This document shows, one piece after another, positions 7,614 to 60,955 of a stretch of DNA of 64,000 nucleotides. The notes under the pieces are model-generated. The model searched no databases. It was not told where the DNA came from and saw nothing but the letters and a program-made list of their open reading frames with translations. Numbering within the stretch: the stretch's first letter is position 1; every line of letters begins with the position of its first letter. The translations under genes and the position numbers were made by a program. Origin of the DNA: Bispira polyomma (Eukaryota); assembly GCA_965649765.1 (NCBI GenBank), contig OZ287752.1:35898001-35962000 (forward strand), given 5' to 3'.

Positions 7614-7616
<3 letters not shown>

Positions 7617-7696: not shown

Positions 7697-7698
<2 letters not shown>

Positions 7699-16004: not shown

Positions 16005-16982
16005 CTAAACAAGGGGGGGTATGGAGGCAGCAAAAGTCAAAGGTACTGCTGAAGCAGCTTGTGAATTTTTCTGTAGGTATGACCATATTGCTGAGTATCT
16101 CCATAATCCATGGGACATAATGTTCTGGAGAGATACATTATGATCAAAAGCAAAAGTGGCCCCAGAACGCCTGAATGTGTGAAAAGTGTGACCTATATGT
16201 GGAATGCCAACATGTTCTAATACTGTAGAAAGAGCTGATCTGACATGTGAGTCTACAATGATCTGATGTGGGTGATTTTTGTCCACAAATAGAGGTTGGT
16301 CCTCTGGCAGAGGCCTGGTGTTAAGTAAATTCTGTAGAGCTGTGACTGGACAGAGGATAGCATTTTTTAACAAGGGAATTTGAATGATATGAAATTCTGA
16401 CCTGATCTGTAGGTTTTTTGCCCATTTCAGTATTGTATGGGCTCCTGGGTGAGCAAATATTATATCTTTCCTAAGAAAATTCCTGGTGGGATCAAATTTT
16501 GATCTGGAATGAGGTGCGATGTTGGACATTCTTAGAGAAGCAAAGAAGGATAGCAGAAATATAGCTCTATATAATGGGGGATCACTCAAGATATCACATG
16601 CTTTGGAGATGAGGGATAGATGGTGTATGTCGAAAATCCCTTTAGGAAGTGGCCTGAAAGAGGAAGTATGGGTTAAACTTCTAGTAAACATAGCAATGGT
16701 ATTGTTTTCAAACATGCTAAGATTCCATGATAATTTTTTGGCCATGTGTTTTATGGCTCCCAGGTAATTATTAATACTGGCAGGTGAAGAGCCTGTTTGT
16801 ACTAGGTATTCCAAAAAAGCTACTATAGAATGTGTGGAGATTTCCTTAATGCCAGCATAACAGTTAAAAGAAATGAATGTCTTAAACTGGTTGTTGTAAG
16901 CCATTGACGTCTGTGGACGAAGTGAGTTTGTTTATTCTCTGCCATGCTGAACTGGAAAAAGCTTGTGTGACTTGAGTGGAAC
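16005..16982 (-). CDS. Tyrosine recombinase of element A (intact ORF 16904-16005; homology extends to the predicted acceptor at 16982 across a 1-bp frameshift near 16930)
   Basis: Catalytic motifs LRMSN (R), HTFRRSGAT (HxxR), HGLW and IWSY (Y); CPV motif. Confidence 0.93.
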
Positions 16983-17002
16983 CTGAAATTACATGGTAAG
17001 AT

Positions 17003-19770: not shown

Positions 19771-21009
19771 CTATTTGTTTGGGTTAAGCCCTGTTTCCAT
19801 CTGTTTGGATGAGTTAGCTTTGTAGCATTTAAACTCCGGGTGTTGAGATTCCTTATGTAGAACTGTTGAACAATGCCAGCACACGTGTTTGTACTGCCCG
19901 TGGCATGCCTTATGTGAACATTTGCCGTTATTAAACAGCTTGCAAATCATTCTAGCTGCTGTTGAATTAGTAGGTAAGTTAGAAAACGTGGAGGTTCCGT
20001 TTCCCTTTGTGTTCACCATTGCCGTCTGGGAAGCGCTCAGGCGGTTAAGCGCCCATTGCGTCGAGTCGCCCCGAGAGAGCCGTCCTTCCTCTAGTTCCGT
20101 CATGTTAAGCGTCCATGCGGTTCTTACTACTTCCCATGGTAGAGATGAAGCATCTCGTAAAGCCAAAACAACTTGTTGGATTATCTCACGTGAAACTATA
20201 GGGTCAGTTACCTGGAGGGCGTTGGTTAGCTGCCCGGCAGCCCACTGGGGTAGTGATAAGTCATCATACGCAGAGCGTTTCTTGGCCGATCCCCCAGTGC
20301 ATCCCTCGTTGGGCCATCTTAATTTTGGGTTACTAATGGGTATGTCTGTAGAGTTAAAACGGCCAGATTTCTGCCTGAGAACAGCCTTACCTTGTTGGAA
20401 CACTGTTTGTGCCTGCATGTTGTACTCAGCTAACTTCAGGTTGATCAGGGCCTGGACATCCGGTAATGACTTAAGTACATCCAGTCGTGGAACTATGCCA
20501 TCTGATGCATAGTCAGATCTGCCCGTGGCGCCGAGTCCTTTCTGCTGTGTAGTAGCCAGCGTCGTCGCTCCCGTGTAAATGGTGGGTTGAGTGGAGAGAG
20601 CAGTACTGTCCTGTGATACTGCTGCCTTAGTGGTTTCTTTCGCCTCGACTCTGTCTAGTCGCCGAGTCAGCTCCGCATTGGATTGCTCCAGCCTCCTAAG
20701 AATCCCGAGCATTTCGGATTTGTGGCCCGATGGAGGAGGGTTCACGACTGCTGGAGTAGGCTGGTGCTGTGTATATTGAAGGGGAAGAGCTACAGCCGGG
20801 TTCACGAGGCCCAGAGTTTGGTTCTGAACGTTAATCGGGGACGCTAGTTGTGAAGATAAGACGGTTCCGAATCCCAGATTGGTGACAATACTGTCATCCA
20901 TGTTAGAGTTTAGTACCTTTGTTTTTGATGTCTTCTTCTGAGCCCTAGTTTTCCCCCCTACTGTAGCTGGTGTCTTCTTGGTAGAGCGAAGCTTCTCTGA
21001 TCGCCCCAT
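19771..21009 (-). CDS. Gag of element A (likely start MGRSEK at 21009)
   Basis: Coiled-coil-like segment, WPNE and YDDLSLPQW motifs shared with C gag, C-terminal CKLFNNGKC...HVCWHC...H....C finger; the upstream 37 codons are T-rich and UTR-like. Confidence 0.85.
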   Translation of the reverse strand: MGRSEKLRSTKKTPATVGGKTRAQKKTSKTKVLNSNMDDSIVTNLGFGTVLSSQLASPINVQNQTLGLVNPAVALPLQYTQHQPTPAVVNPPPSGHKSEMLGILRRLEQSNAELTRRLDRVEAKETTKAAVSQDSTALSTQPTIYTGATTLATTQQKGLGATGRSDYASDGIVPRLDVLKSLPDVQALINLKLAEYNMQAQTVFQQGKAVLRQKSGRFNSTDIPISNPKLRWPNEGCTGGSAKKRSAYDDLSLPQWAAGQLTNALQVTDPIVSREIIQQVVLALRDASSLPWEVVRTAWTLNMTELEEGRLSRGDSTQWALNRLSASQTAMVNTKGNGTSTFSNLPTNSTAARMICKLFNNGKCSHKACHGQYKHVCWHCSTVLHKESQHPEFKCYKANSSKQMETGLNPNK

Positions 21010-23932: not shown

Positions 23933-25048
23933 ATGCAGAGGGACTATGCATTGGGGACCAATAACCAGTCATTAACTTACCATGTGTCTGTCTTTCCAAC
24001 GGTTTCTTTCAGCAATGATTCCATGACAACTCCAATTACTGCCAGTGGCAATAATACAACAGAAGGCAAAGAGGAGGAGCAGAGGGCTTTGGCAGAAATC
24101 ATTGTGGTTGGTTCTATCTTGATGCTCTTGGTCCTGGTGACCATACTGGGCAACCTTCTGGTATGTGTGGTAATCTGGTCCAATCGCAGACTACAGAACC
24201 CCACCAACTACTTCATCCTCTCCCTTAGCCTCTCAGACCTCTCTCTTGGCATATTGGTGCTGCCTTTTAGTACAATCAACAGTATCCTTAATACCTGGCC
24301 ACTCGGACCCGTCTTCTGCAACATCTACAACTCCTTCGACGTCATGCTCTGTACCGTGTCCATACTTAACCTCTTCGCCATCAGTCTGGACCGGTATTAT
24401 GCCGTCACCTACCCCCTGCGCTACGTGCAGCGTGTCAACTCACAACGGGTTTTCTGGGTCTGCATGGGTATATGGATATTCGCCTTCATCTTGGCATTCA
24501 TACCCATTCACCTGGGCTGGAACACCCCTGAAGGGTCGGTGCAGAACTTCAAGAACCCTCGGCAGTGCATGTTCCTGGTAAATGCGGTATACGTCTTACT
24601 GATCTCCATAGGGACCTACTTCATACCACTGATCATCATGTGTACAGTTTATACCAAAGTTTTCTACATAGCCAAGAAACAGGTGAAGAACATCAACAAA
24701 ATGACTCAGATTGGAAACCACCTGCACAATGGGAACTCCAATTCTAAAAGAGATCAAAGACTGGCCAGCGATACCAAGGCTACATTTACGCTAGCCTCTG
24801 TTGTGACTGCTTTCGCTATGTGCTGGGTTCCATACTTTATCGTCTTTACCATCAAACCTTTTATGTCTGGTCCAATCAGTCCGCACCTTGATCTTTTTGT
24901 ATTGTGGCTGGGCTATGTAAATAGCCTTCTCAATCCCTTTCTGTACGCATTCCATAACACAGAATTCAGATACGCTTTCATGATGGTACTGTGTAAAAAG
25001 ATGGCAGAGAAATATAAAGACAGATACTCAGATGCATCTTATGTGTAG
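23933..25048 (+). CDS. Class A aminergic GPCR, histamine H2 receptor-like, intronless CDS (371 aa; alternative start MTTP)
   Basis: Seven hydrophobic segments; GNLLV, SLSLSD, DVMLCTVSILNLFAISLDRY (Asp3.32), IHLGWN, CWVPYF, LWLGYVNSLLNPFLY; DVMLCT, IHLGWN and LWLGY are characteristic of vertebrate HRH2. Confidence 0.92.
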   Translation: MQRDYALGTNNQSLTYHVSVFPTVSFSNDSMTTPITASGNNTTEGKEEEQRALAEIIVVGSILMLLVLVTILGNLLVCVVIWSNRRLQNPTNYFILSLSLSDLSLGILVLPFSTINSILNTWPLGPVFCNIYNSFDVMLCTVSILNLFAISLDRYYAVTYPLRYVQRVNSQRVFWVCMGIWIFAFILAFIPIHLGWNTPEGSVQNFKNPRQCMFLVNAVYVLLISIGTYFIPLIIMCTVYTKVFYIAKKQVKNINKMTQIGNHLHNGNSNSKRDQRLASDTKATFTLASVVTAFAMCWVPYFIVFTIKPFMSGPISPHLDLFVLWLGYVNSLLNPFLYAFHNTEFRYAFMMVLCKKMAEKYKDRYSDASYV

Positions 25049-31769: not shown

Positions 31770-34700
31770 GTCCCCTGGCATGACGGCGACAGCCCCCTCA
31801 GTTCTGGTACCAGGCTACTGGGGGGCCAATTAGGCCACCTGGGGTCAGGAGGACAAGTATACAAGGGTTTGGCGCCAACCAGGCGCCATCATTAAATTTT
31901 ATACATTCTTAAAGAAGGAGTGTTTTTACAATTGGGGCTTTACTACCCTACTTCTGTTTTAAACTTGTCTTTAAAATTGTTTTAAATAAAATTGTACAAT
32001 ACCTAAGAAGGAATACCAGTGTAATGGGTGTTTAGGAAAACATGAACGGTCTGTAGGAAGACCTTGTCGGTTGTACTTAGAGGGCAGCATTGCTGATGAA
32101 GTGACCACAGTTGATCCAGCTCCTTCTGATGACTTGTCTGACTCAGTGTCAGGGCAAATACTACAACAGCTGCAGTCGTTAAACAAGAAAATGGAAAGCA
32201 TGGATCAACGCATCCAGGTCACTGAGGCAGCGCTGTGCTCACCCAGCGCCAGTAAGGCGAGTACAAACCCTTCTTTACCCAGTGTTAATCTTGCTAGTGT
32301 AACTACACCTGTAACTTAAGCCGTGGTTCCCTTGTTAGACTTCCTGCGAACAAATGACCAAATACAGGCTCAGGTTGATCAGTGTTTAGTCCAGTTACAG
32401 CTACTCAATGAATTTACAGGAGGTAAACTGAAATCCCAACGACGCGGTACTGAGGCGCCAATTAAGAAAAGCATTGACTGGCCTTAAAATTTTGTATTGT
32501 CTGGGGCTAAAAAGACTAGGCCCACCTATGATGATTTGTCATAGTTCAATTTATCCCAGGGTTCATCAGATGTGTTCAGGAGCAAAAAACACTGGAAGTG
32601 CAGGAAGCAATGCTTGAATATGTAGCTAATTTGATGGACGATGCTCATGATTTTTCCTGGGAAGCGGCCAAAACGTCTCATGCCATTTTGCTCACTAATA
32701 TGGAGCTTAACAGCCTTAAGTGGATGGATGTAGAAAAAATTTCGTCTGTCGTTTTTTCCGGGAAGGAATCTGTAAATTCAATGCCAGCCACCGTACTTTC
32801 GGTCAATTATTTAAACATTCTTGTGAAAACTGTGAGGACTCACATCAAACCAAGCTATGTAAAAAACCTGTGGTAAAAAACTGAGTGGCCACTGCAATAC
32901 TGCAGTGGGCACAACAAGTCGAGCTGATGTAGTTTATTCTAGAGTGGTTTACAACTCACAGTTTAGGGATTTTTAATTATGTGATAAATTGTGTGATAAA
33001 ATGTGTTTTAAAAATTCTATGTGTGACCAAAATACAAAAAGGTCCTACAAGGACGTGGTGGTAGACAGAAAGAGTGGTAATTCCCAAGTATTTACCAGCA
33101 ATCCTGTGGTGGGCAATAGCGGGAGATATGGCTGTGTTAAATGTAAACAAAAATATGTCAACAAGTTGACAGCTTCTAAAGTAAAGGGACATGTTTTCAA
33201 AAGAAGTGTGAAATGCACACAACAATCTCCCAGTCAGGCCTATACCAAGGGGTTGCATGCCAACAACAATTCAGCCAGTATTGTTTTCCGTTCTGCTTGT
33301 ACCAAAAAAGGTGTGGACTTGGGTAAGGAGGACAATGGAGATGGGGTTGGTGGCTTTAAATTGCCTCTCCATAACAAGTTCTCTGGTTTAGCCTATTGTG
33401 TGGATAATGTGGGTATTGGGGATTGTGTGAAATTTAAATTTAATTGGATATTTAACGTCCACTCTAGTATCTGTTTAGGTTATATTGGGATGGGTAGTTG
33501 GAAACGCTGGAGGAAACACTGCATACAGTTGATCAAGGTTCTGCAGGGGATTGTGTGGAAAGTGTCACATCCATACAGCTTCCAAGCTCAGGTGAAACAA
33601 TAGACTATGTTGACAATGTAAACAAATCTGGGGGGGGGGGGGGGGTGTTTGTTCAAGTAATACCAAGAGGTCAACCCATTGTGACAAAGCAAATAAAACA
33701 GACTTAATTGACTGTGACGATAAGTATGGGTTGGACATGCATAACCACCCTGACAAAAGACAACAATTAAAAAATGCCAAACAATGTGACACTTACAAAT
33801 TGTGGGGCACTCAAAATCAGGAGAAGTTTGGGTTTATTCCATTGACTCAATGGGGCCCCCCAGTTAGTGACAACTCAGGTTACAAGTTGCCTCAACACAC
33901 ATTGACTCTACACCATTGTCTTGCGTTGGATGGGCGCCCTAATTATAGGGGCCTCCAGCTGCCTGTTATAACCCAACTGAATGCCAGTGTGTGGGCAGAC
34001 TACTTGTGGGGTTATTGGGATTGGGAACTCCCTCTACTAATCAAGTTTGGTTTTCCCCTCGACTGTGACAATGCACATGTGTTTAGGTCAGAACTTAAAA
34101 ACCATTCGTCTGCTGTGCAATACCCTGAACATGTGTACTATTATTTGTGGGAAGAGTGTGAGCTAGGTGCTATTTATGGCCCTTTTACTAATCCCCCTGT
34201 TGATCAATTACACACCTCCCCTTTTATGACTTGTGACAAGTCGAGTTTGATTAACCGTAGAGTGATAATAAACCTCAGTTGGCCAGAAGATCATTTGGTT
34301 AACGCTGCAGTATGTCCATCATCCTATTTGAACAAGGAGTTTGTGCTTACTTATCCATCTATAGACACTATAACTAGTCAAGTCATAGTCATGGGTAGGG
34401 CCTCTCTGATTTTCAAAGCAGACATAAGTCACGCCTTTAGACATGTGACCATGAACCCTAAAGATGTCAATTTGTTGGGACTTTATTGGGATGGGTACTA
34501 TGTGGACGGTTCACTCCCCTTCGGATATAAGCATGGCTCAGCCATATTTCAGAAAATTTCTGATAGCATACACTTCATAATGAAAGGCGAAGGTCACCAT
34601 ATCGTAAATTACATCAACGATCTCTTATGTTGTTCTACCCTAAGTCAGAAAAAACTAGTCCCCCCCAGCGACTTGAGTTACTTGTGTGGGCATTGAGATA

Positions 34701-34990
34701 GACACTGTGGAGTTCACCACCTCAATACCGGGGGAAAAACTTAAAAAGATCCAGGCTATGTGTGATAACTGGGTGGGAAAAAAATACTGCACAAAAAAAG
34801 AACTCCAGTCATTGCTGGGTTCACTCTTGTACGTGTCTAAATGTGTTAAATACTCTATTTTTTCTAAAGCGTATGCTTCAACTTCTTAGAAGTAACCACA
34901 AAAATAAGTCATTCAAAGTCTCTTCTGAGTTTCGCCAAGACTTGCACTGGTTTAGGTTGTTTCTCAGAAAGTATAATGGGGTGTCTTACT
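31770..34990 (+). mobile_element. Element B: decayed, 3'-truncated YR retrotransposon related to element C
   Basis: 5' region near-identical to 53628-53790; gag with ATG->ATA at 31999 and stops/deletions; RT fragments WDWELPLLIKFGFPLD, FKADIS, SLPFGY, YIND; ends before RNase H. Confidence 0.92.
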
Positions 34991-37411
34991 TAGTTAAGAA
35001 AATTCTTATTCTATGAATATCAATATTTTTAGAATATAAAACTTTCTAAGTGTAAGTGATTCTTATTTTAAGTATAAGAACTTTAGTGTATACAGGCCAT
35101 GGCCATCACTAAATATTTAAAGGCTTTTTTAAAATTTTTGTTGTAAAATAGGATTGTCACGTCTCTAATTCACTGAGTTTCAGATTACTGTATTTAAGTG
35201 GAATAAAATTGCACTGACCTAATGATAGGATATTTTTAAAATCACCAAAATGGTTAACAAGAAATAGATCTTGTCTTATTTTTGGCCTAATGAAAATAAT
35301 TTTGTCAGCTCTTCTAGATTAGATTTCATCCTTCAATAAAAGGATAGACTAATTTAATTGTAACTTTATGACCCTTGATACACACGGGGATGTAATGATT
35401 AGGTTTAAAATAGAGACAAATATGTCTGCTTTAGAATGTCAGACAAAAATGTAGCTAATTAGTGTCATTCCATACAAATATAGTAACACATCTGTAACAT
35501 CCTTTGGGAAAATTCCCAGCCTTGAATTAGACTTAGATCAACTGAAATCTTTAAATAAAATTCAATGAAAACTTGCTATAGTAAAACTTATGTATACCCA
35601 TTTATGATTTGAAATGGCTTTATGAAATGTATAATGCCTTAGTAATATTTATCCTGTTTTGTTTTATAACGTTTAAACTTTTTAAATTTCTACTTAGTGA
35701 TAATTAAAGTTAAGTCCGATTTAAATCTTAACTATCTATCAAAAGTAACAGACCAAATCAAACACTATCAAGATAAATGTTTTTTAAAAGTTAACCCTAT
35801 TCTGTATTGATATTAACATAACTGTCATTTGTTTTATCAACTGTTGAAAAGTTAGTAATATTTAATCCTTAATCTGACTAAAGTATCTGCTCATATAAAA
35901 CAACCCCAAATAAATCCAGATCAAATTATCGCGTTTTGACAAACTATTAAGGTTTATTTAATTACTTGACAGTATGCAAGTAGGTATCCTAACTAAGTAC
36001 TGTGGCGTCAGTTAGTATATATATAAAGAAATAAACATGACACATAATATATAAGTTTGCTCAATTGAATAACTGGGCCACCATAAAACTGGGAATATTT
36101 CACACACTACTCATGCACAAGCAGATGTTTAGGTGACAATGGAATATGATAAAAACAGGAACTATGAAAGAAAACACAAAATTTGTTTTTTCTCAAATCA
36201 AAAGGGAACAGGATATGGAGCAATTTCATCTGTATGATATCACGTGAAGGCAATCAAAGATATGTTACTAATTGTGTGGGATATTCCAACAGTTTATATC
36301 ACCTGCTATTTCACATTGTTACTCTTATTTATTTTTTAAAAACATCATCACAAGTTTATATGAATGATTAATGGGCTAACTTCAACATATGGGACTACCT
36401 ATTTTAACAAATACACTTCAGCAATAAACCAGACAGTTTTTAGGAGGACAATAAAGCTAGAGATATATTGGTTTGAGATGTTAAGTAGAAAAAACACACT
36501 ACTTAGTGCAGGAAATGAATACCATTAATACAAGGTCTTATAGTGAAAGGGGGAAAAAACAACTGTTCTAAAGAAGATATCAATTAGTGTGTCACACCAC
36601 TTGGTTTGTGTTTATTTGAAAAGTAACACGATATATTTAATTGAGTCTCACTTGATTTCATTCTATGTCTTCTGTTAAAGCAGGTACTAGTTGTCTCCGG
36701 GTTGTTTATATAATGCATACTCTGGTCCTGTTTGCATGCGCCTCACGGAGAGGTCTTAAATGTCTGGAGCAGTGAGCTTTTATTCTATATTTTTATTTTT
36801 AGGTTAATACAAGTGAAATACATTACAGAAGGCACATAGACAATCACGCCATACATTACCAAAAATATATAATAATAATAACAATCATAAAGAAAAAAGT
36901 TATAAACTTAGATCTATCTTGACCCTTTCGACCACTTTACGCTGGGAACTAAAGGAAAGTTTTCAGGTAATAGGCTAGAGATGGCTGGAATCACTAAAAC
37001 ACCATAGTCTACTTCCAGCATTTAAAAATGGTCTCACATATAATTTTTTAGATGGCGCTCTGCTGCACTAAAAATATCGTAAATTCTATCGTAAGGAACT
37101 GGAGGAAAATAAATTAATATTTTTTGGTTGACGACTCCTTGTCTAAAGACATAGGTTCTGGGAGTAACAAATGCTGTAGACTGTTAGTTGTCAACCTAGG
37201 ATTCGAAAGGGATAACTTAAGATTTGAACTTAGATTTGTTTTAAGCTCAATGTTGTTAAAGTCTGTCTTATGATATTGTGAGTTATGAATGGTACAATTA
37301 GCACTATAGACTACTACTGTTCTTAATGCCCACAACATCAACATCATGAAGAAATTTTTCTGGTCAAAACCTCAGACTTAAAGTCTTTGATTCAAGACTG
37401 AGGCTAGTCTA

Positions 37412-37778
37412 AAGCTTTTGTGAATACCTTCCCTGGTTTGTATGTGTAATTTATTAACACATAAGGCCTTTATCAAAACTTTTGTGAATACCTTTTCTGG
37501 GTTATATGTGCAATTTATTAACACATACGGCCTTTATAAAGCTTTTGTGAATACCTTCCCTTGTTTATATGTGTAATTTATTAACACATAAGGCCTTTAT
37601 TAAGCTTTTGTGAATACCTTTCCTGGTTTTTATGTGTAATTTGTTAACACATAAGGCCTTTATAAAGCTTTTGTGGATACCTTTCCTGGTTTATAAGTGT
37701 AATTAATTAACACATAAGGCCTTTATAAAACTTTTGTGAATACCTTTCCTGGATTATATGTGCACTTTGTTAACACAT
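37412..37778. repeat. 63-bp tandem repeat, ~6 copies
   Basis: cttttgtgRatacc recurs at 37415, 37479, 37542, 37605, 37668 and 37731. Confidence 0.96.
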
Positions 37779-40086
37779 ATAGCTTATCTTTTTCTCACAC
37801 TTCCGAACTATGAGCAATATAATGTGAGAAGTTACTTTTGATAGCTTCACTGTGAGGGTTTAATTAATGACTTCACAGACAAAGCCATGTCATGCGTTAG
37901 CACACAAACAACAGACACATGCAGCAGATAGCAGAGCAATCTGGGGCCAGTTGGAAAACTTTCATCCAGTTGGGGCACGGGATGACAAGCAGGTATTCTT
38001 TAGGTGTTACATAGAATAAATAGTCCCTAAACTACAACTAGAAAAGGTTTTTCATTCCATTCATTTTCATTGCTTGCACTGGTTTAATATTATTATGAGT
38101 TTAACATTGCTTTCAACATGAAGAGCACTTTTAGTGCTAATGGAACCCAGTATGTACAAATTGGTCACTATTCTACACTGTAAACCAGCGACCATCTGCA
38201 AGCTATATATAAATGACCTCCCCATCCTAAAAAGCTTGTCAGCCCATATTGATGGTTACTTATAGCACACTGATAATTGTATCTGGTATTATATATATTG
38301 TAGTAGATATGGTATTATACATCAATATCACAATATTCATTAAACCTGGACCGACGTATTGATATTGAAATTGTTGGATGATATATCAATATCTAACAAA
38401 TACCTTTCGTAACCACAAATAATTTAATATTTTGACTTTTTATATAGTTTAATTGCTAAACAAAGCAATTTGTTACACTTTTAAATTTGTTTACATTTAT
38501 CGCCATGTTTACAAGAAGTGGTATGTACATTAACAGTACATACTAAATGTCAAATATTTGAAGCTAAACAAATTCTGATATTTGAACCAACTGATAAAAA
38601 AATATAACTATTAAAAAATGCCATTTTATACCCATAGCTATATTGTCGTCATTGTTTATACCATGGTGTGCATATTTAGACACCTTCAGTTTCACCACTT
38701 AAGTATTATTGTGCATTTTTAATGCGCTTTATTGATGCTAGACAGCTTCTAAAGCGCAATAGTAGAATCAGTGATCCAATCGTTAATTCGTTCAATCGTT
38801 AATGCATGAAAACACTTCTATCAACCCGAACAAAGATATTTTATATGGCATTATAACTGATTAATTTGCATATATGTGTTGTAATTCACAGAGGATATGG
38901 GAGATAAATAGTATATCCCTCCTAATAAGTCATTAATTAGAACTACCATTCCAATAAAAAATTGAAGTGACACCGCTTTGTCATTTTAGCCCCCTTGTCA
39001 TTCACAGACCTTGTCAGTTTTGTCCATATTTGACATGCATTCTATCCTGTGTATATTTAGACTTCGTAATATGTTGTCGTCAGCCAATTTATATTTAACA
39101 TAACTCTTTATTAATGATGTGTACCTGTAAACTATCACAGAGAGTGCTTATTGTTACCAACACCAGATATTTAAAAATAGCCAAAATGCTTTGGGGAGAC
39201 ATTTTGTGCTGTTTACGGTGGCAATACTTTTCCACCTGTTCCCCCGACGTAATCTTCACAGAGAGGCAGATCAGAATCATATGGATTTGTTGGGCTCAGT
39301 TATTGTTATTGATTGAGCAATAGCCCCTGTAGGAAAAAAAAGCCAATATGTGCTCCTGGTTAGTGACTTCAATGTAATGTTGACACTGTTCACCTGCTGT
39401 CTTGTGAATAGTATAGACACAGAACTGTATTATATGTATAAATCTTAGTGGGTCCCATTGTTCAAATATATATTATATCAGTGGCTAAATAGATCTATTG
39501 AAGTGGTACACATAAGTCAGAAATAAATAGTGTGTTCTAATATGTACACGTAAGAGGGAGAGAGAGTCTATTAAGTCAGGGATTGTGTGTTTACCTTTCA
39601 CTGCTGACATTTTGAGTAAATAGACACAGACTTATATGGGGTGACATTTGTCAGAATGACAGGAATATTTTTATAATGTAGTGTTGTTGTGGTGGTGGTT
39701 TATGGTTAAAGACACACATCAAATTAGTATAGTTGCGTCACCATAGATATTGACAGCTCTCCTTTATAACGGAGATACAGCGTGTATTATTTACTGGGGA
39801 AATTACAGTAACATTTTCACAAACAAACAGGTGGATTATATTTCTATGTAAGTTCAGATTGTATGGGGTTTGTGTGAATATATTTATTAAAAATCATGAG
39901 GTTACAAGCTGATAACTAACAGCTAGTGTGGCATGCACTAGTAGGATAGACTGGTGATCAGATGAAGACTTAAAAATCATGTAAAAAGCCAGTAGTGTTA
40001 ACTATAGGACAATTTATTTTTAATATTTACCATTGATAATTGTATTAGCTGATATATTGTATAAAACAGGCCCATTTATATATGGT

Positions 40087-45800: not shown

Positions 45801-46348
45801 GCAGGCAGTACAGTCTGCTCTTTCTCAGCCCTTCCCAGGACGTCTCCTAGTACTCAGCTGACAGATTCACAACAGTAAAGTTGAATCTTAAACAGGAGGC
45901 AATAGCACTCCAACAACTGGATTCACTGCTGAATCACAAGACGTGGCAGCTACACCATGCAGAGGGACCAGACGATTCAGTTGCCGGCTCCAGCCAACAT
46001 ACAGCTTCTCCAAAGGATGTAGGCCACAGAGTTTAAGACTATATTTTAAATATTCTATCAACAAAAAGTGTAACATAGGGGAAATAGAATAAGCAAGCAA
46101 AGAGACAATTATCTCAAACAATAACTTTATTAAGGTATATAATAAATGAATGGATATTCAATACACAAGTACATATAATTATAAAACATGACCAATCAGT
46201 TAATATTCACTACTTGGACATTCTACTATGTGGCTTATACTAGTGGCTATTTAATTGAAACCTCAGCCTAAACTGGCAAATACAGGAGTTATCTGACATT
46301 AGGGCTACATGGATATCCACCTATACTGAGGCTATTAGGACTATATGG

Positions 46349-46905
46349 GCGGCTACAGATCCTAATAAGTCTATATTTAATATATGGAAAATATTGGCAG
46401 CTATTGGCGGCTATAAGATGGCTATTGGCGGCTATAGGGTGGCTACTTGGGCCTTAGCCTCTAGGTAATATAAAACCTATATAGGCGGCTGCTGGCGGCT
46501 TCTAGCGGCTGTTGGCGGCTATGGGCGGCTGTTGGGCAGCTACAGGTCTTAATAAGTTTATATTTAATATATGGAGAATATTGGCGGCTACTGGCGGCTA
46601 TAGGATGGCTATTGGCAGCTATAGGGCGGCTACTTGGGCCTTAGCCTCTACTAGGTAATATAAAACCTATATGGGCGGCTGCTGGCGGCTACTAGCGGCT
46701 ATGGGCGGCTGTTGGGCAGCTACAGGTCTTAATAAGTCTATATTTAATATATGGAGAATATTGGCGGCTACTGGTGGCTATAGAATGGCTATTGGCGGCT
46801 ATAGGGTGGCTACTTGGGTCTTAGCCTATACTACGGAATATTAGACCTATATGGCCGGCTGTTGGCGGCTACTAGCGGCTGTTGGAGGCTATGGGTGGCT
46901 ATTGG
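46349..46905. repeat. ~180-187-bp tandem repeat (3 copies) built from ~10-bp ggcggctaYt subrepeats
   Basis: taataagtYtatatttaatatatggaRaatattggc recurs at ~46363, ~46550 and ~46730. Confidence 0.93.
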
Positions 46906-47609
46906 TTCTGATAAGTCAATATTCAATTGTTGAATACCTAACTTATCTAGCAGTTTTGTATCTGGGCATATCTAGCCAAGTGATCTGTTATATTTAGTTG
47001 TAGAAAGACTGTTTCACAGCCATTAGTGGTGGAATAAAGGGCATTACTCATTTCAATAAGATTCATAACATTTCCTGCAGCTAAAAGTAGATTTTAAGGC
47101 AGTTTTAGGGTGGGCGATATACGCGGAGAATAAATATTTTCCGCCAAAATACCTGACGTCACAATTTACACTGAAACTGAGTAAGAATTATCAAATATGG
47201 CCCTAAAATCCCCATAATGCTTAAATACTTGTTTGTAAAACTAGTATTAGTAGATATTTAACATTTTACAGCACCAACGGTCATTTTATTTATTACAATT
47301 ATGTGATTATCGGCAAAATACCCAATTTTCGCCGGTTCTACTACGACAATGACCGTTTACGAAATTTGCAAAGTTCGGACCGCTACAATACTTACTAAAT
47401 TAAAATATTTTTTATAATAAGAATCAAATACCAATTTTTTTTTTTTAATTTGTGTATACCTCGTATTTTTAAAAAACCTTCTTTGAAAGTGTTTTAATAA
47501 ATGTTCAGAAAATAATTGTATGGGTAAAATATTGGCAAGGAGCTCCAAAAATTATCCTACGAATGAGTATTCTTGATTAAATACCTATGATCTGCATTAT
47601 GTTCCACAG

Positions 47610-52683: not shown

Positions 52684-53664
52684 CTGAAAAACAATACAGG
52701 GAAAAGTATATTTATACTTATGTCATTTCATTTACAGTGTTATACCACGACAGCCAACAAGTGTTGTCATTGGCGTCCAACCAAATCCATGAAAGCCTTA
52801 CATATTATTTCTCACATGGCGGCCAACTGATAATCGCCTAATAATATAAATCTGACGCCCCTTACTTGCGTCGGATTGATTGCTTCCAGCCAATTCATGA
52901 AGACGTTACATATTTCCAACAAAGCAGCGCCATTTCCAGAATGAAATGAACATTGTGCTGCACCTGATAAAAAGAACGGCCAAATCACTTGAGAGTTTCA
53001 GTTTTATTTAAAATTCTGGTAAAATCCAGCAGACTAACTGAAAGTATAGTGTTTCTGAACAAATATGATTTCAAATAATGTCCACATATTTGTACTCTCA
53101 TTAATAGTGTAGCGATCCTTGTTTCAAACTGAATAATGGGCTGATATATTTTACAGTTTACGAATTGTTCCAAAAGTACAAAACATTTTAAAAAAGTATT
53201 TTTTTATCTGTGATATGAGTATTTTTTTATTGATATATTTAGGTTAATCCATTATAAACAACAAATTTGAGTTGAACAACACTGTAAGACAGCCCATATA
53301 CATAAAATAAAGACGTAAATGTTTCCTAATTCTATTTTTTAAAAAGATGCACTGGAATTGAGATTGTTACTATTGGTAATTTTTTTACTTATTAACAGAT
53401 TCTTGAAAAATGTTAAAAGTGTTAATTAACCCTTTCCTGACTGCTTTCCTCAACTGCCTTAGTTACTGACATTCCCCTAACTGAAGAGAGAGACTTGAGG
53501 ATGACCATTTATCCATGCCCCTAAGGAACTTTAGCTTGCCACTGGGGATAAGATTCTTAAGATCCTTTTAAAGCCTTAACCAACTTAATCTTCAACAGGG
53601 CATGCCTGTGGTGGGCTGACGCCCATGCGACAGCCCCCCTCAGTTCTGGTGGCAGGTCACTGGG

Positions 53665-53735
53665 GGGCCAATTAGGCCACCTGGGGTCACGGGGGCAAGT
53701 ATAAAAGGGATTTCCGCCAACAGGCGCCATCATTA
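53665..53735 (+). promoter_or_regulatory. Putative internal Pol II promoter of element C (CCAAT, TATA, Inr)
   Basis: ggCCAATtag ~53668, TATAAAAG 53700-53707, TCATT 30 bp downstream; same layout in B (31826-31893, with TATACAAG). Confidence 0.6.
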
Positions 53736-53839
53736 GTTAAAAACAGTTCATAGATACAAGTGTTTTACAATTGGGGCTTTTACTACCCAGGGCTTTTACT
53801 ACCCAGATATTGTTTTACATTTTAATTGAATGTGTAGTC

Positions 53840-54835
53840 ATGCCTAAGGAATACCCGTGTAGTGTATGTTCTGGTCGGCACGAACGTCCAGTTGGGAAGA
53901 AATGTAAATTTAATCCGTTGGACAGCGTCGCTGATGAGGTGGCTGCCATTGATCCCGCTGTGCCTGCTGTTTCTGATTCCGTATCTAGTTTGATACTTCA
54001 ACAACTGGTCGTGATGAATGAAAAGATGGACAGCATGGATCAACGAGTACAAGCTACTGAGGCGGCGCTGTGTAAACCCAGCGCACAGGCATGTAACACA
54101 GTTTCTAAATCTGTATCTAATGTCCCTAGTGTTAGTGAACCAGTGTTTGAGGCCGTTGTGCCCTCCCTAGATTACCTGCGTTCAAATTCTGGCTTACAGA
54201 GTCAGGTAGACCAGCGCTTGCTGCAACTGCAACAACTCAATGATTTAACGGGAGGTAAACTGAAATCCCAAAGAGGTGGCGCGGAAGCTCCCGTTAAACG
54301 TCATGTTGATTGGCCACAAAATTTTGTCTTATCTGGTGTAAAAAAGGTTAGACCCACTTATGATGACCTTACTTTGGTTCAGTTCGTCTCCGGGTTTGTT
54401 CGCTGTACGCAAGAGCAAAAAGAGTCCTCTGTCCGCGAGGCCATGTTGGAATATCTGGCATGTCTTATGGATGACGCCCATGATTTTTCGTGGGATGCCG
54501 CCAAAGCCGCTCACGCCATTTTGTTAACCAACATGGAAATGGACCGATTGAATTGGACGGATGTCGAAAAGGTCGACCGGGTAAGGCGCGCTCATGCACA
54601 GCGTCATGTAACGTCCTCAGCTAGTGGGTCTGGCCTTTCTAAAAGCAATGTTGGCAGTAAGGGTAAAACCTCGGTGAAAACAGCTGGAGTAAATTGTCGA
54701 TTCTTCCAAGAAGGAACGTGCAAATTTGATGCCAGCCATCGCACTTCTGGACAGTGGTTCAAACACTGCTGTGAGAGCTGTGGTGGCACGCACCAAACCA
54801 AGTTGTGCTCCAAAAAGTCGGTGTCAAAAAACTAA
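53840..54835 (+). CDS. Gag of element C (start MPKEYPC at 53840)
   Basis: N-terminal CxxC-xxx-H...C knuckle, coiled-coil-like segments, WPQ/YDDL motifs, C-terminal CRFFQEGTC...H...HCCESC...H....C finger. Confidence 0.9.
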   Translation: MPKEYPCSVCSGRHERPVGKKCKFNPLDSVADEVAAIDPAVPAVSDSVSSLILQQLVVMNEKMDSMDQRVQATEAALCKPSAQACNTVSKSVSNVPSVSEPVFEAVVPSLDYLRSNSGLQSQVDQRLLQLQQLNDLTGGKLKSQRGGAEAPVKRHVDWPQNFVLSGVKKVRPTYDDLTLVQFVSGFVRCTQEQKESSVREAMLEYLACLMDDAHDFSWDAAKAAHAILLTNMEMDRLNWTDVEKVDRVRRAHAQRHVTSSASGSGLSKSNVGSKGKTSVKTAGVNCRFFQEGTCKFDASHRTSGQWFKHCCESCGGTHQTKLCSKKSVSKN

Positions 54836-54860
54836 GGGGCCACTGCAGTATTGCAGTGGC
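54826..54860 (+). promoter_or_regulatory. Predicted -1 ribosomal frameshift signal (gag->pol)
   Basis: A_AAA_AAC heptamer directly before the gag TAA, 6-nt spacer, perfect 9-bp hairpin GCCACTGCA-gtat-TGCAGTGGC; conserved in B at 32875-32907. Confidence 0.75.
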
Positions 54861-54866
54861 TGCTAA

Positions 54867-57353
54867 GAAACTTGCTCTAGAGTTGTATATAATTCTACTT
54901 TTAGGGATTTTAAACTGTTTGATCATGTGTGTTGTAAATATAATGTGTGTACTGGACCCCGAGTTAACAGGTCATACCGGGACGTGTTGCAACAGGGCCT
55001 TGTGGTTACTGATACCAAGATTTGTGGAAACCGGGAAATGGGAAAAGTTAACACTGTTTCTGTTAATAAAACTCCCCAAGGTAGCAAACTCGTGTTCCAT
55101 AATTCATCATTGCACAAGGTGTCGGGAAGGAAGCATTCACCCGTGGAGGTGTTAAATACACCAGCTGACAGGCGACGTGAGAAAACAAATCACCAAAGGG
55201 TGTTAAGAAAAACACCTTTGGGTGGTGTGAAAACATCCGTGAATAGGGGGGTCTGTAACAATGCAAACCGGGTGTTACAAAACAAACCAATTGCGTCCAA
55301 AACAATTGAACTAAGTGATGGCAAAGGGTGCTCTAAACTTCTGGTTTCTCCGAGTGTGAAAACAATTGGCGCGGGTACCACTCCAAGTAATGCTAACAAT
55401 AGTGGGTTTCGCCTTCCCATTCATAACCGGTTTAGTTGTTTAGACATTCCTGATGTAGAACTTCCTGACTCGAGTGACACGTTAGGTAAGGTCGATTTCA
55501 CACCTAATCCACCACCTAACAAGAGATCTAACCCGTGTGATGACAAGTATGTACTGGACCTCTCAGGAGGCCTTGATAAAAGACAGCGCTTAAATGCAGC
55601 TAAAGATAATGTGACCTACAAGTTGTGGGATATACAGAATAGTGGAAAGTATGGGTTCATACCAACTAGTTCCTGGGGTACCCCAGTGATTGATTGTTCC
55701 AATAACCAATTGATCACAGACGTGTTTACACTACATAAGTCCCTTAAATTGGATGGGAGACCAAATTATAAGGGTTTACAAGTCCCCATACACACCCAAC
55801 TGACGGTCCCTGCCTGGGAAAAGTACTTAGCGAATTATTGGGATTGGGAACTCCCCTTACTGATAAAATTCGGATTTCCTCTTGACTGTAATGAAGAACA
55901 CGAGTTCAAGTCTGACTTGAACAATCATGCTTCAGCCAATCAATATCCTGAACATGTGAACCATTACCTGAAAGAAGAATGTTCTATGGGTGCTATGTAT
56001 GGACCTTTCGTCCATCCCCCAATTGATGATGTGCACACATCCCCATTTATGACTAGAGACAAATCAAGCTCGGTTAACCGACGAGTCATAATCGATCTGA
56101 GTTGGCCCATCGGTCATTCGGTTAATGCAGCCGTGTCATCAAGTTCGTATCTGGACAAGGAATTTGTACTTACTTACCCTTCCATAGATGACATAACCCA
56201 ACAAGTGTTGCAAAACGGTAGGGGCTCCTTGCTATTTAAAGCGGATATTAGTCGCGCATTCCGTCACGTTACCATAGACCCCAGAGACATCAATCGCCTG
56301 GGCTTATACTGGGACGGCTACTATGTCGACGGCTCGTTGCCCTTTGGCTACCGACACGGTTCAGTGAATTTTCAGAGAATTTCTGACGGTATAAGGTATA
56401 TAATGGAAGGTGAAGGTCATCAAATCACCAACTATATAGACGATCTGTTATGTTCTTCTGTTCCCTCAAAAATCTATAAAACGTACCACCGACTGCAGGC
56501 CCTTTTGTCCGAGTTGGGTTTGACTCTCAGCAAGAAGAAGCTGGTTCCTCCAGCCACCCGGGTAACCTGCCTAGGCATAGTTATAGATACAGTTCGGTTC
56601 ACTACATCGATACCAGAGGACAAACTAGCTCAGGTTCAAAAAATATGTGGCAATTGGAGTGATAAAAAGCAGTGTACTAAGCGGGAGCTCCAATATTTAT
56701 TGGGTTCTTTGCTATATATTTCTAAATGCGTGAAGTACTCACGATTTTTTCTGAATCGGATGTTGCAACTCCTCCGAAGCAATCACCACAAAAGAAGTAT
56801 GAAAATTAACCCTGAGTTCAAAAAGGACCTTAACTGGTTCATTGAGTTTCTCCATAAATACAATGGGGTGACATTTTTTCATCATGCCCCCATTACTGAC
56901 ATTGTAGAGTTGGATGCCTGCCTAACAGGCATGGGAGGAGTGTATGGCAAACAAGTATATTACCTTCCCATTCCTGCTGCTATGCAGAAACATAATATTG
57001 CTTCATTGGAGATGCTTAACATTCGTGTGGCTTTGAAATTGTGGGGCAAATACTGGCAAGGACGTAGACTGTTAATTAAATGTGATAACCAGGCTGTTGT
57101 AAGTGTCCTTACTCATGGTAGAACTAGAGATAGCGAATTAGCCCTGTACTCACGGAACATATTCATGCTGGCTAGCCAGCTCGATGTAGAGATACAGGTG
57201 GTTCATATTCTAGGAAATGACAATACCACTGCTGACCTCTTGTCTCGCTGGACAAATTCAATTAAGGATAATGTTCTCTTACAGGAGCTGGTGGGCAATG
57301 TCCAATGGTGTGCCGTGACAGAGGACCACTTACTGCTTAATCACCACATTTAG
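54867..57353 (+). CDS. Pol of element C: ~250-aa leader + reverse transcriptase + RNase H
   Basis: Frame open from 54867; RRVIIDLSWP, FKADISRAF, LPFG, YIDD, CLGI; RNase H DACLTG, LEM, CDNQAVV, HILGNDNTTADLLSR. Confidence 0.95.
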   Translation, partial: ETCSRVVYNSTFRDFKLFDHVCCKYNVCTGPRVNRSYRDVLQQGLVVTDTKICGNREMGKVNTVSVNKTPQGSKLVFHNSSLHKVSGRKHSPVEVLNTPADRRREKTNHQRVLRKTPLGGVKTSVNRGVCNNANRVLQNKPIASKTIELSDGKGCSKLLVSPSVKTIGAGTTPSNANNSGFRLPIHNRFSCLDIPDVELPDSSDTLGKVDFTPNPPPNKRSNPCDDKYVLDLSGGLDKRQRLNAAKDNVTYKLWDIQNSGKYGFIPTSSWGTPVIDCSNNQLITDVFTLHKSLKLDGRPNYKGLQVPIHTQLTVPAWEKYLANYWDWELPLLIKFGFPLDCNEEHEFKSDLNNHASANQYPEHVNHYLKEECSMGAMYGPFVHPPIDDVHTSPFMTRDKSSSVNRRVIIDLSWPIGHSVNAAVSSSSYLDKEFVLTYPSIDDITQQVLQNGRGSLLFKADISRAFRHVTIDPRDINRLGLYWDGYYVDGSLPFGYRHGSVNFQRISDGIRYIMEGEGHQITNYIDDLLCSSVPSKIYKTYHRLQALLSELGLTLSKKKLVPPATRVTCLGIVIDTVRFTTSIPEDKLAQVQKICGNWSDKKQCTKRELQYLLGSLLYISKCVKYSRFFLNRMLQLLRSNHHKRSMKINPEFKKDLNWFIEFLHKYNGVTFFHHAPITDIVELDACLTGMGGVYGKQVYYLPIPAAMQKHNIASLEMLNIRVALKLWGKYWQGRRLLIKCDNQAVVSVLTHGRTRDSELALYSRNIFMLASQLDVEIQVVHILGNDNTTADLLSRWTNSIKDNVLLQELVGNVQWCAVTEDHLLLNHHI

Positions 57354-57435
57354 ATATTGCTTTGTCTGGTTGCATGGTATTATGTTGATCAACCTTTACA
57401 AATGTTACTTTGTCTGCTTTGTGTTTGTGTTATAG

Positions 57436-58274
57436 CTAGAACTCCCCTGCAGCAGTTATTATATCTAAATGCAACGAAGAAGCTTCACCTGGCCTTCTGC
57501 AGGTCTACAGACAGATCTTATACTGCGATGTATAGGGTGTACCAAGCTTATGCATCCTTCTCGGATCTGCCTTGTGACCAGGTGACAGCTATTGATCTTC
57601 TTGCTTTTTTAGAATTGTTACACTTTAACTCTGTAAAACCTGCCCATATGGCCAATTATTTATCTGCTATTAAAGCTAAGAGTATTGTATACAATGTGCC
57701 CATTCATGCCTTCAGTGACCCTCGCTTGGCTTACTATCAAAAGTCTGTCCAATTAGCTGCCCCCTTAAATGTTCAGCTCAAAAAGATTATAGACATACCT
57801 CTTCTGACTAGTATTGTCAATGTCTCCAACACCACTTACATGGGTCCTATCTTTACAGCTGTGTATTTGGTCAGCTACTTTTCCTTCCTGAGGTTATCCA
57901 ACTTAGTACCTCATTCCTGTCTTCAGTTTTCTGCTTTAAGACATCTATCAAGGGCTGATGTTATGTTTCACAGGGACAAAGCTGTCCTTTTGGTAAAATG
58001 GTCCAAAACAATGCAGATTAATAATCAGATTAGACTTATTACTATCCCACGTTTGGTGGGTTCCCCTCTTTGCCCTGTGGGGTCACTGCAGGCAATTATG
58101 GCTCTTACTCCGTCTGAACCTAATTCACCCTTATTTCAATTGAGAGACAAATCTCACTGGGTTCCTCTTACTGACACCCGTGTCCGCAGGCATTTCAAAA
58201 CGATACTTGCCAGGCTCCAGTTGCAGGATTCTGGCCTCACACTGCACGCTTTCCGACGTTCGGGTGCACAGTAG
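57436..58274 (+). pseudogene. Tyrosine recombinase of element C, C-terminally truncated
   Basis: FLRLSN, WSKT, LCPV and HAFRRSGA present; the downstream HGxW and catalytic Tyr seen in A are missing. Confidence 0.9.
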
Positions 58275-58337: not shown

Positions 58338-58481
58338 CTTTGAAGCTGATTCGGCCTTCCTCCTTGCCAGCTTCTTTGATCATTTGGCGGACATCCTCCT
58401 TGGTTACATCCTCCCCTAGACGATACATCACCTCAGATAACTCTGACTCTGTGATAAACCCATCACCATTCTTATCAAAGA
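58338..58481 (-). CDS. Calmodulin-like gene, exon 5 (EF3 and degenerate EF4)
   Basis: Acceptor ttttaatttag, donor AAG|GTTAGC; VFDKNGDGFITESELSEVMYRLGEDVTKEDVRQMIKEAGKEEGRISFK. Confidence 0.92.
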
Positions 58482-58916
58482 CTAAATTAAAAATACAACA
58501 TGTACTAAATTAACAGTGCTAAGGTCCATCAATTCTTAGAAATGTCAAGTACAACTGCTTTCCTCAATACTTTAAAATCTCATGTATTACTGAGTTTTTT
58601 CATAAATAAAGTACAACAGTTTTCGAAATACTTTAAATTCTCTTGCAAATTCAAAATCAAAAATGCCAATGTCTTTATAGATATTGTCAAATCCAATTTC
58701 CACTGCTTTGTTAAATATCTTCAAAGTCCAGTTATCACCGCCCTTGTAAATAATCATACATTAAGTACCCTGATTTTGTGACTTGAAAATTTTCATCAGC
58801 AATTAAGTTTGGGCTATATTTGCCAATGTGTTTGAGCAAGAAAATTAATCCCTAATCAAAAAGTTTTTTTTTCATATAAGAGGAAAAGGCTAATTATGAA
58901 AGTAACTTCAGCAAAC

Positions 58917-59018
58917 CTTGAAATGTTTCCTTAATGATGTCATATCCGTCTAGGTCTGTGCCCTGTAATGTATTGGACATCATGGACATGAACTCATGGA
59001 AGTCAATCATTCCATTAC
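58917..59018 (-). CDS. Calmodulin-like gene, exon 4
   Basis: Acceptor tcctttcctcag, donor AAG|GTTTGC; GNGMIDFHEFMSMMSNTLQGTDLDGYDIIKETFQ. Confidence 0.92.
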
Positions 59019-60020
59019 CTGAGGAAAGGATATGAGTAATTGTGGATAATAGTGCAATAATTTAACTGATACTGCTTTCCTCATCCTTATGGATTATGAT
59101 ACTCTGCATAGTAGTAGACAAATTGGACAGTGTAGCTTGAAAGTTGCTACTCCAGTAGATAGAAGAGGTTACCACTAGTTGTTATATCCTAGACAAAAAT
59201 TACTTCTTTCAAGAACAAAATATATATCTCTTTAGCCTGGCCAACCCACCACCCCTAGCATTTTTCTCCCCTGTCGATGTGTTCACTGGTTACAGCATTT
59301 TTCTTGCCACTATTCCGTTTTGGACAACAAGCACTTGAGAGGATTTACACCAAACGGATACTATACAAATTTAACAATAACAAATTTATTTATTATGAAT
59401 CAAAATATTAAAAAAAGATAATGTTGGGCTTCTAAAAATCTCTGAAGTAGTCTGCTGAACTAGCGAGAGGTGAACACTAGTGAGTTGTTTTCTAGCAAGG
59501 CAAGTGGTTTGATAGTTTTTTATGGTGAACTTCGTGGAATTTCGTGGCTGTTCTTCACTATTCTTGCCTCCTCTTAGGTACTCCTGCCTAGTATAAATTC
59601 AGGATTATGCTACAAAATAGCAATTTTCTACAAAGCTATGCCACCTGGGGCCATCTTTGGAACCTTGTCTCCTTATATTTCTTCTAAATACACGCGAATA
59701 GGATTTCTAACCCAGATATGATAGGAGATGATCTTTACCAATCGTGGCTCAGATCTGGAATTGTGGGGCCTTGATATGATTACTCGTTGACAGAGCCATA
59801 GATATCTAATGTTTAAGTTGACTTTGGGAAAAGTTAAAGAATAATCACCCTAAATTTAGTGGCATGTGTATTTATTTTGCAAAAACTTTTTTAAAATAAT
59901 CACATGATTCTCATAAGTTACTGATCCTGTTCAGACAACTTAATCCTCTCAATATAACATAATTATCTGGTAATAATAATGTCATAAAAATGGGATGTAT
60001 GGAGACAAGACATAACCCAC

Positions 60021-60164
60021 CATCTGTGTCTATGCGCTGTAACATATCCAGTACTTCAGCCTCTGTGGGGTTCTGACCTAGTGACCTCATTACACGACCC
60101 AGTTCCTTCGTGGTCACCGTTCCGTCGTTGTCAAGGTCAAGGTGAGCAAAGGTCTCGGTCAGCT
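60021..60164 (-). CDS. Calmodulin-like gene, exon 3 (144 bp; EF1 and start of EF2)
   Basis: Acceptor tttcctccacag, donor ATG|GTGGGT; [48 protein letters not shown]; same size and phase as the canonical calmodulin exon. Confidence 0.95.
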
Positions 60165-60955
60165 CTGTGGAGGAAATATTGAGACTAAAAAAGTTACTTC
60201 CAGTATGAGTTAGTCTGGAATTCCACATATTTATAAAATCATATATTAGATATGTTTACTGTATCCAGAGTTGAGTATAAGCTAATTATACGTTCGGGCC
60301 TCTGGGTAACTATGTAAATGGCGGTCTCTACTATTGGGTCATAACACCCGTGGCAGGCTAAAGAACTTTAGCGACACTGATAAATGGCCTTTCTCAAATT
60401 TTTGTCTGCAGCTACAAGGAATAACAGTTTTTTTGTGTTGGCAGGCATTCTCTTTAATTCAAGAATGCAGTAAGATACAAACCAACTTCTGATACCAAAA
60501 ATGTCATCAACTTTGTCTTCAGTGCCAACTACAGCTAACAGCCAACAGTAAATGTTATTTGGTCAATGTTACTTTTGCTACTCGAGGATACGATCCAGTG
60601 ACAGATTGCTGACAGTTTAATTGGTTATTTGAGTCACTATCTATCTACTTAAACCTGAGATCGAAACCAGGTCCTGTACAAACTAGGCCCCAGTAAGAGG
60701 TTCTATAGGATATATCATATTTAAAAAATTTAAAACATTGCTTAATTTCTTTGTTTATTTCTATCTGGGGTTTAAATCTTATATATAGCCAGGTGTCGAA
60801 GTATATTTCAATAGTACAAGTAGTAGTTATTTACAATTAGATATATTTATAGATAAACTTTAAGCAATTTGTGGCAAAAAGCAGTCAAGTACCAATAGAG
60901 GTGTTTAGAGCTGTAAAGCTATGGGGTCATGTTTTTAAAAACAACTGGTTGTTAC

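Follow-up and report, generated by a model that had tools for sequence, protein, structure and literature searches.

A putative −1 ribosomal frameshift signal at the gag-pol junction of a Ngaro-type tyrosine-recombinase retrotransposon radiation in Bispira polyomma

The stretch of the Bispira polyomma genome analysed here (contig OZ287752.1, positions 35,898,001 to 35,962,000; 64,000 nucleotides, hereafter the window) holds three related retroelements, whose gag-pol junction is the subject of this work. Element A lies at 16005-21132 on the minus strand; element B, in pieces, at about 31786-35090, and element C, which ends inside its tyrosine recombinase (YR) gene, at 53607-58267, both on the plus strand. 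Their open reading frames (ORFs) matched the Pfam models for reverse transcriptase (RT), RNase H-like and phage-integrase domains. B and C are dead, broken copies of a large Ngaro-type tyrosine-recombinase retrotransposon radiation, and C is 93.7% identical, within the alignment, to a full-length sister copy, L033.

The gag frame of C runs from 53741 to 54835 on the plus strand, and its gag-like ORF from ATG to TAA (53840..54835) carries a C-terminal zinc knuckle; the zf_CCCH match in the gag of L033 was weak (E 0.06). At the end of this frame, and in phase with it, lies the slippery heptamer A_AAA_AAC (54826..54832). It is followed by a 6-nt spacer (54833..54838) that opens with the gag stop TAA (54833-54835), and then by a putative stimulatory hairpin of 9 bp with the 4-nt loop GTAT (54839..54860; arms 54839-54847/54852-54860). 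The heptamer, stop and 9-bp stem stand exactly where a first-pass annotation, made from the sequence alone, had placed them. RNAfold gave −24.3 kcal/mol for 54833-54890, with a z score of −4.09 and none of 200 shuffles as stable. The pol ORF (RT and RNase H, 54867..57353; Pfam RVT_1, RVT_3 and RT_RNaseH, no methyltransferase match) sits in the +1 frame, an effect of 13 nt missing from C just after the hairpin (deletion site 54872..54875). Of 31 subfamily copies, 30 have 63 nt between the heptamer and a downstream landmark, and C alone has 50 nt, so that the shortening is private to this copy, as had been suspected. C's own RNA cannot give Gag-Pol. Within the pol frame, 54876..54911 encodes the conserved peptide SRVVYNSTFRDF, variants of which were found in 11/11 short-hairpin representatives with a KN-stop end that were displayed.

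Element B has the same arrangement on the plus strand: the heptamer A_AAA_AAC at 32875..32881, the gag stop TGA at 32882-32884, a 7-nt spacer, and a hairpin at 32889..32908 with a 4-nt loop (arms 32889-32896/32901-32908). The first-pass annotation had given this hairpin 7 bp at 32890-32907; it is present, and has 8 bp. Its fold has a z score of −2.80, and two of 200 shuffles were as stable. From the heptamer, the −1 frame of B is open through the peptide SRVVYNSQFRDF to the premature TAA at 32974-32976 (peptide and stop, 32938..32976) and continues as the pol ORF 32977-33603, so that the −1 frame is the pol frame interrupted by one TAA, as had been read before. Further ORFs and Pfam matches place the pieces of pol in B at 32977..34696. 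The pattern of heptamer, stop, 4 nt, stem, 4 nt and stem had 445 exact matches in the genome versus none for a reversed control, and its 5' half had 578.

We then placed the junction in a census of related loci, gathered by Gag protein similarity and thus blind to the heptamer motif. The Gags of C and A served as queries together with four homologues found in other assemblies, and the census loci are best-scoring and hand-picked matches, a fraction of several thousand candidates. Dropping 21 duplicates reduced 251 loci to 230, which formed 48 clusters at 84% DNA identity; four copies of cluster F2 (L037, L048, L049 and L050) share flanks and are not independent. The clade of element A comprises 4 clusters with 30 loci, which leaves 44 clusters with 200 loci outside it. 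A representative was obtained from 39 of these 44, the other five being single or broken copies, among them B, whose heptamer is in frame when read by hand. AAAAAAC stands at the gag end in 187 of the 200 non-A loci and lies in the gag frame in 177, and 39/44 non-A clusters keep A_AAA_AAC in the gag frame.

The frame of pol was equally constant. Pol is −1 relative to gag in all 29 of the closest sisters of C, 28 of which are open from the heptamer to the RT-proximal region. Among the 102 uninterrupted RT-containing frames outside the A clade that reach the junction, 99 are in the −1 frame, two in +1 and one in frame 0. In 34/39 clusters, most copies have the −1 frame open through the first 30 codons; for the +1 frame this holds in 1/39. 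The first-pass annotation had staked its reading on the family frame of pol being −1, and both counts (29/29 and 99/102) bear this out.

Downstream of the heptamer, the gag stop follows after 0 nt in nine clusters, 3 nt in 23 and 18-24 nt in seven. Despite this shifting stop, the main (longest) helix begins 5-9 nt after the heptamer in 35/39 clusters. Mean pairing probability is about 0.3 at positions 5-6 and above 0.9 at positions 9-13 after the heptamer. Segments of 45 nt averaged −14.8 kcal/mol at the junction and −3.8 to −7.4 kcal/mol when at least 30 nt away from it. The 39 representatives had a median of −15.5 kcal/mol and a median z score of −3.2, with z below −2 in 26; 37 of them reached −10 kcal/mol or lower, versus 10% among 364 further heptamers of slippery type from these loci. 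A comparison with Rfam gave no match at E up to 5. A classical pseudoknot is ruled out for the short hairpin by its 4-nt loop, the long-loop clades aside. At the L081 junction (cluster F6), the loop is complementary to bases just 3' of the stem, a possible pseudoknot of unusual geometry.

Sequence comparison of the stem itself showed both conservation and replacement. In the 22 short-hairpin clusters, 153 of the 154 cells formed by seven core pairs are paired, against 49%, 7% and 29% in slid controls. One core pair is C-G in nine of these clusters and G-C in 11, a switch that falls on the Gag tree as a single event between two well-supported clades. The loop-closing pair occurs as A-U, G-U, C-G or U-A and is unpaired in six clusters. 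The covariation that the first-pass annotation proposed to look for is thus real, but it is modest within the short-hairpin clade. Substitutions per site, counted over 125 copies, were 0.005 in the stem and 0.072 in the loop. Other clades of the Gag tree carry unrelated stems (GCTGYC-type, GCCAGC-type and CGGGGT-type) at the same distance from the heptamer. Since the stem was replaced while the distance was held, we regard this as the strongest sign of selection for a structure at a fixed distance from the heptamer, and it is stronger evidence than the covariation within the clade.

No conserved ATG was found for pol. The first Met after the heptamer in the pol frame falls anywhere from codon 12 to codon 391 across clusters, and differs within clusters: in that of C it is at codon 44 in 16 copies, at 74-75 in 11 and at 391 in one. 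In clusters F15, F18, F24 and F35 it is at codons 288-376, while nine of 16 uninterrupted F2 copies have a Met at codon 12, one representative of F25 has it at codon 13, and one of F34 at codon 4. The conserved VYN-type peptide precedes the first Met in B, C and most families, as the first-pass annotation had it for the pol frame; this does not extend to all of them, F2 being an exception.

Proteins from other assemblies pointed the same way. Among 101 Gag homologues, 54 had a complete knuckle, and 43 of these 54 end in KN (28) or KNx (15). Seven frameshifted homologues run on into peptides of the KTxxPLQxCSG- or KTxxALQ-type, which is the hairpin read through. The four homologues used as queries are at most 65% identical to their matches in this genome, and therefore come from elsewhere. 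The Gag alignment, scanned against metagenome and viral contigs, turned up no relative, and other species are represented by proteins only.

We consider canonical −1 ribosomal frameshifting the best reading of the gag-pol junction of this radiation, with a probability of about 0.88. The frame, the phase of the heptamer, the spacer, the conservation and replacement of the stem and the lack of a conserved pol ATG were compared directly, and in heptamer, spacer, stem and frame the comparison supports the classical frameshift reading of the first-pass annotation. In most lineages, programmed −1 ribosomal frameshifting would yield Pol in the form of a Gag-Pol fusion. A ribosome would pause at the hairpin 6-8 nt downstream while the Lys and Asn tRNAs sit on A_AAA_AAC at the gag end, and a fraction would slip one base back into the pol frame. 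The remaining ribosomes would terminate 0-8 codons later, giving Gag. The slip itself, its efficiency and the part of the hairpin as stimulator are what we infer from the sequences.

Several observations weigh against this reading. Three of the 102 uninterrupted copies are not −1; the exceptions that were read (L041, L232 and L202) carry local deletions. In L036 and L037, which are outside the 102-copy count, gag and pol are fused in one frame by an upstream one-base shift. The z score is above −2 in 13/39 representatives, and two representatives, the broken copies L175 and L234, have no stem. The main compensatory change counts as a single event on the tree, and the five central pairs are invariant and therefore uninformative on pairing. 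T-A7-C occurs in 80/578 of the motif matches, and one subfamily whose pol is still under purifying selection has a UAA directly ahead of the heptamer in all of its matches (12/12); plain tandem slippage cannot explain a selected pol behind such a stop. Finally, the 3' arm of the short hairpin holds, in most clusters, a CAG in phase with a conserved putative splice donor in gag.

This last point bears on a rival in which an alternative splice, and not frameshifting, would give Pol by joining the gag donor to an AG close to the junction, for instance the CAG in the hairpin arm. The donor is conserved and of phase 1, 32/39 clusters have an in-phase YAG no more than 73 nt from the heptamer, often at +24, and splicing to Pol would account for the lineages with UAA before the heptamer. 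A gag TAG, however, is automatically in phase, and seven of the 39 clusters have no in-phase YAG; among these seven, F6, F14, F18 and F46 have an uninterrupted pol. A nearby in-phase AG with at least 65% upstream pyrimidines occurs in 1/39 clusters, versus 65-80% for four acceptors read before YR, and splicing leaves the invariant gag-frame heptamer and the fixed spacer unexplained. We therefore hold it to be quite improbable. TTTAG|GG at 54902-54908, tried as a pol acceptor, was rejected: its phase does not match that of the donor, and F2 does not keep it.

Marginally less probable still is that Pol has its own start, by reinitiation or from a subgenomic RNA, with the overlap incidental. Some clusters do have a Met within 12-20 codons of the heptamer, but the first Met is not conserved even in the cluster of C, lies at codons 288-376 in the four clusters named above, and is preceded by the conserved VYN peptide in most clusters. 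We give least credence to a role of the inverted repeat in DNA or replication, as a recombinase site or as a priming or packaging hairpin, with the A-run serving simply as Lys and Asn codons. The short hairpin keeps its 6-bp core almost unchanged across the 22 clusters, more strictly than pairing alone needs; this invariance also fits dual coding (H-C-x-x-A-V), as in four of the six core pairs one base is at a third codon position and its partner at a first, and in the remaining two both bases are at second positions. The stem is wholly replaced in other clades with the heptamer distance held, the inverted repeat lies outside the terminal repeats, and K-N could be encoded by AAG/AAT, yet AAAAAAC is found in 187/200 loci. 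The inverted repeat may have a second role beside frameshifting.

The lineages that stop at UAA just before the heptamer were not foreseen by the first-pass annotation. In the first 12 T-A7-C copies fetched, UAA lies in the gag frame right before the heptamer, one of them having its knuckle frame broken upstream. In another family UAA and TCA stand at 14 to 11 among the matches listed (100 of 102), and in F2 UAA is scattered over the tree. In the pol of the fixed-UAA subfamily (10 copies), changes shared between copies were 27 nonsynonymous to 39 synonymous (0.69), against 181 to 82 (2.21) for singletons (p 5e-5). Shared pol changes were mostly synonymous, unlike singletons, also in F1, F2 and F5. 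For RT-proximal pol, the same comparison gave no significant difference in F4, in F7 or in the F2 stop-only set, and over the first 1050 nt of pol it was weak or null in most clusters (p 0.04-1).

An X_XXY tetramer precedes the stop in 28/32 UAA copies, versus 42/166 sense copies and 7/40 sense clusters; the UAA set amounts to about five lineages, the link to the tetramer was found post hoc, and 21 of the 32 copies were picked by pattern. The amplified UAA lineages (L251-L271, L042, L043, L211-L219 and L197) mostly have their stop after such a tetramer. A 'shifty stop', in which gag ends at UAA and the P-site tRNA alone slips −1 on X_XXY (A_AAG, G_GGU, G_GGG or A_AAU), is a tentative and rather doubtful suggestion for these lineages. 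The tetramer counts and the selected pol of the fixed-UAA subfamily speak for it; against it stand the scatter of UAA over the F2 tree, its mixture with TCA, and the post hoc and pattern-picked nature of the sample. The closest precedent is potato virus M, a case on which PMC5009743 is cautious. Alternatively, Pol may be supplied in trans, as was shown for DIRS-1 (PMC7192593).

The clade of element A, the other finding not foreseen earlier, has no heptamer. In A itself the gag stop UAG lies at 19771..19773 on the minus strand, with pol in the same frame. All 30 loci of the clade have UAG at the gag end as called, with G as the next base in 27, and pol is in frame 0 in 9/9 uninterrupted copies. 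A gag ending in UAG with pol in frame points to readthrough, by which this clade would make Pol. Gammaretroviruses such as murine leukaemia virus use gag-UAG-pol readthrough, and the A clade resembles them in its UAG at the gag end and its in-frame pol. It differs from them in that no stable conserved structure was found downstream of the UAG (z −1.8). A motif GAC-CAR-CTA-CCA-G occurs 7-19 nt after the stop in all three sub-lineages (L051-L080) and is a candidate readthrough signal.

A splice probably links the third gene, YR, to the Gag N-terminus, as the first-pass annotation had supposed. The putative 5' splice site in the gag of C, G|GTAAAC in phase 1, lies at 54254..54260 on the plus strand. 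A G|GTA donor is found at the same Gly in 24/24 clusters (of 48) where the motif located the site; as a control, GGT encodes Gly at 133/372 other positions. In 4/4 full-length-copy clusters read, a pyrimidine-rich AG of matching phase stands just before the YR similarity. Such a phase-1 donor and in-phase acceptor were noted in L031-L048 and, in the window, at 54254 and 57435. In C, the putative 3' splice site (AG ending at 57435) is followed on the plus strand by the YR coding part (57436..58267), for which L033 has a Phage_integrase match; it is truncated before the C-terminal end present in sisters. Pol and YR have no fixed frame relation across copies and clusters, and joining them by readthrough, suggested by their common frame in C, was rejected on this account. 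Among the 15 joints displayed, of 17 in total, from three runs of unrecorded type, none linked the donor to either acceptor, a result that is uninformative.

The family to which these elements belong was judged from repeats and ORFs. Full-length sisters are flanked by a 163-nt repeat on the 5' side and by B1-A2..B2 repeats on the 3' side, in the arrangement A1..B1-A2..B2; the 5' direct repeat A1 of C (53607..53770, plus strand) matches both A copies of L033. Both pairs of split direct repeats were found in 6/20 long loci (L033, L034, L036, L042, L046 and L047), in some of which B2 is cut by the end of the fetched stretch. The window copies B and C are truncated and have no 3' repeat set. Pfam scans gave gag, RT/RNase H and tyrosine recombinase, in that order; the YR score was below the gathering cut-off, and H-x-x-R and a downstream Tyr are visible in the YR tail of L033. 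No methyltransferase domain was matched in Pfam at E up to 1, and pol ends about 33 aa past the RNase H-like match.

The inverted terminal repeats, internal complementary region and methyltransferase of DIRS1-like elements were not found. PAT-like elements combine split direct repeats with a DIRS1-type pol including a methyltransferase; the split direct repeats here fit them, and there is no methyltransferase match. The repeats, the ORF order and the absent methyltransferase fit the published Ngaro-like definition (order DIRS), taken from parts of PMC3783388, PMC9210276, PMC8547959 and PMC3266345; this is a comparison with descriptions, the only tree being that of the Gag clusters of this genome. 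The elements share with Ngaro-like ones the gag-RT/RNase H-YR order, the split direct repeats and the lack of a methyltransferase, and L033 differs from them in having about 570 nt between A2 and B2 (6552-7123). This interval, noted in L034 and L036 as well, contains a 92-nt near-tandem repeat. For Ngaro, frameshifting was proposed at the overlap of RT/RH and YR (Poulter and Butler 2015, as quoted in the part of PMC13003380 available). Here, unlike in that proposal, the signal lies at gag-pol, pol and YR have no fixed frame, and YR looks spliced.

The signal is of a textbook type, a −1 frameshift cassette; its location in these elements may be undescribed, and a prior mention is possible. The gag-pro signal of human T-cell leukaemia virus consists of an A_AAA_AAC heptamer plus a stem-loop. 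According to the available sections of PMC5009743, the usual spacer is 5-9 nt and A_AAA_AAC is among the most shift-prone heptamers. The junction described here is like canonical signals such as gag-pro of mouse mammary tumour virus (MMTV) in having this heptamer in the upstream frame, a 5-9 nt spacer, a 3' structure and an enzyme ORF in the −1 frame. The putative stimulator is either a plain tetraloop hairpin of 8-9 bp or a stem of greater length, whereas MMTV has a pseudoknot. The host element has no protease, integrase or env, unlike retroviral gag-pro systems, and the long terminal repeat (LTR) retrotransposons with −1 gag-pol frameshifts are integrase-type, whereas these are of the tyrosine-recombinase type.

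In the literature covered, which took in parts of PMC6681497 and bioRxiv 10.1101/2022.06.16.496473 and had Poulter and Butler 2015 and Goodwin and Poulter 2004 outside its scope, we found no described slippery site at the gag-pol junction of a tyrosine-recombinase element. The terms 'DIRS' and 'tyrosine recombinase' are absent from the first 300,000 of the 449,034 characters of a review on LTR-element frameshifts. How Pol is translated in tyrosine-recombinase retrotransposons is not worked out in this literature, the one proposal found being about the RT-to-YR overlap. If our reading is true, a single recombinase-retrotransposon radiation would hold the whole retroviral kit: Pol would come from −1 frameshifting or from readthrough of a UAG, and the third gene would be reached by a splice. 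It would also imply a retrovirus-like ratio of Gag to Gag-Pol, and hence particle formation, in an order without protease or integrase. About 40 diverged lineages with one heptamer, one spacer, several unrelated stems and a UAG sister clade form a natural experiment, and would offer natural stimulator variants for frameshift biology. Pol expression is testable with a cassette of about 60 nt, and ORF calling from ATG only would truncate these pol genes.

Some features of individual copies and of the surrounding sequence were also noted. Single gag-pol frames span L036:1007-4726 (1239 aa) and L037:1123-4245 (1040 aa) in the oriented copies, and open frames of 1029 and 1219 aa were listed for the matches G000:C3:101946190 and C2:89495910. 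Several copies stop after B1, as if the A2-B2 part had been lost. L037, L048, L049 and L050 adjoin a 72-bp tandem array and are 98-99% alike including flanks in the two pairs that were compared; three of these copies are located close to contig ends, and they are likely segmental duplications. In the window, an intronless ORF of 372 codons at 23930-25048 (plus strand) resembles, by eye, an amine-type G-protein-coupled receptor. The exons of a calmodulin-like EF-hand gene, likewise recognized by eye, lie at about 58340-60255 on the minus strand, with C ending just beyond them on the opposite strand. Minisatellites and an AT microsatellite occupy 14292-14534, 37410-37779, 46346-46927 and 7600-7703.

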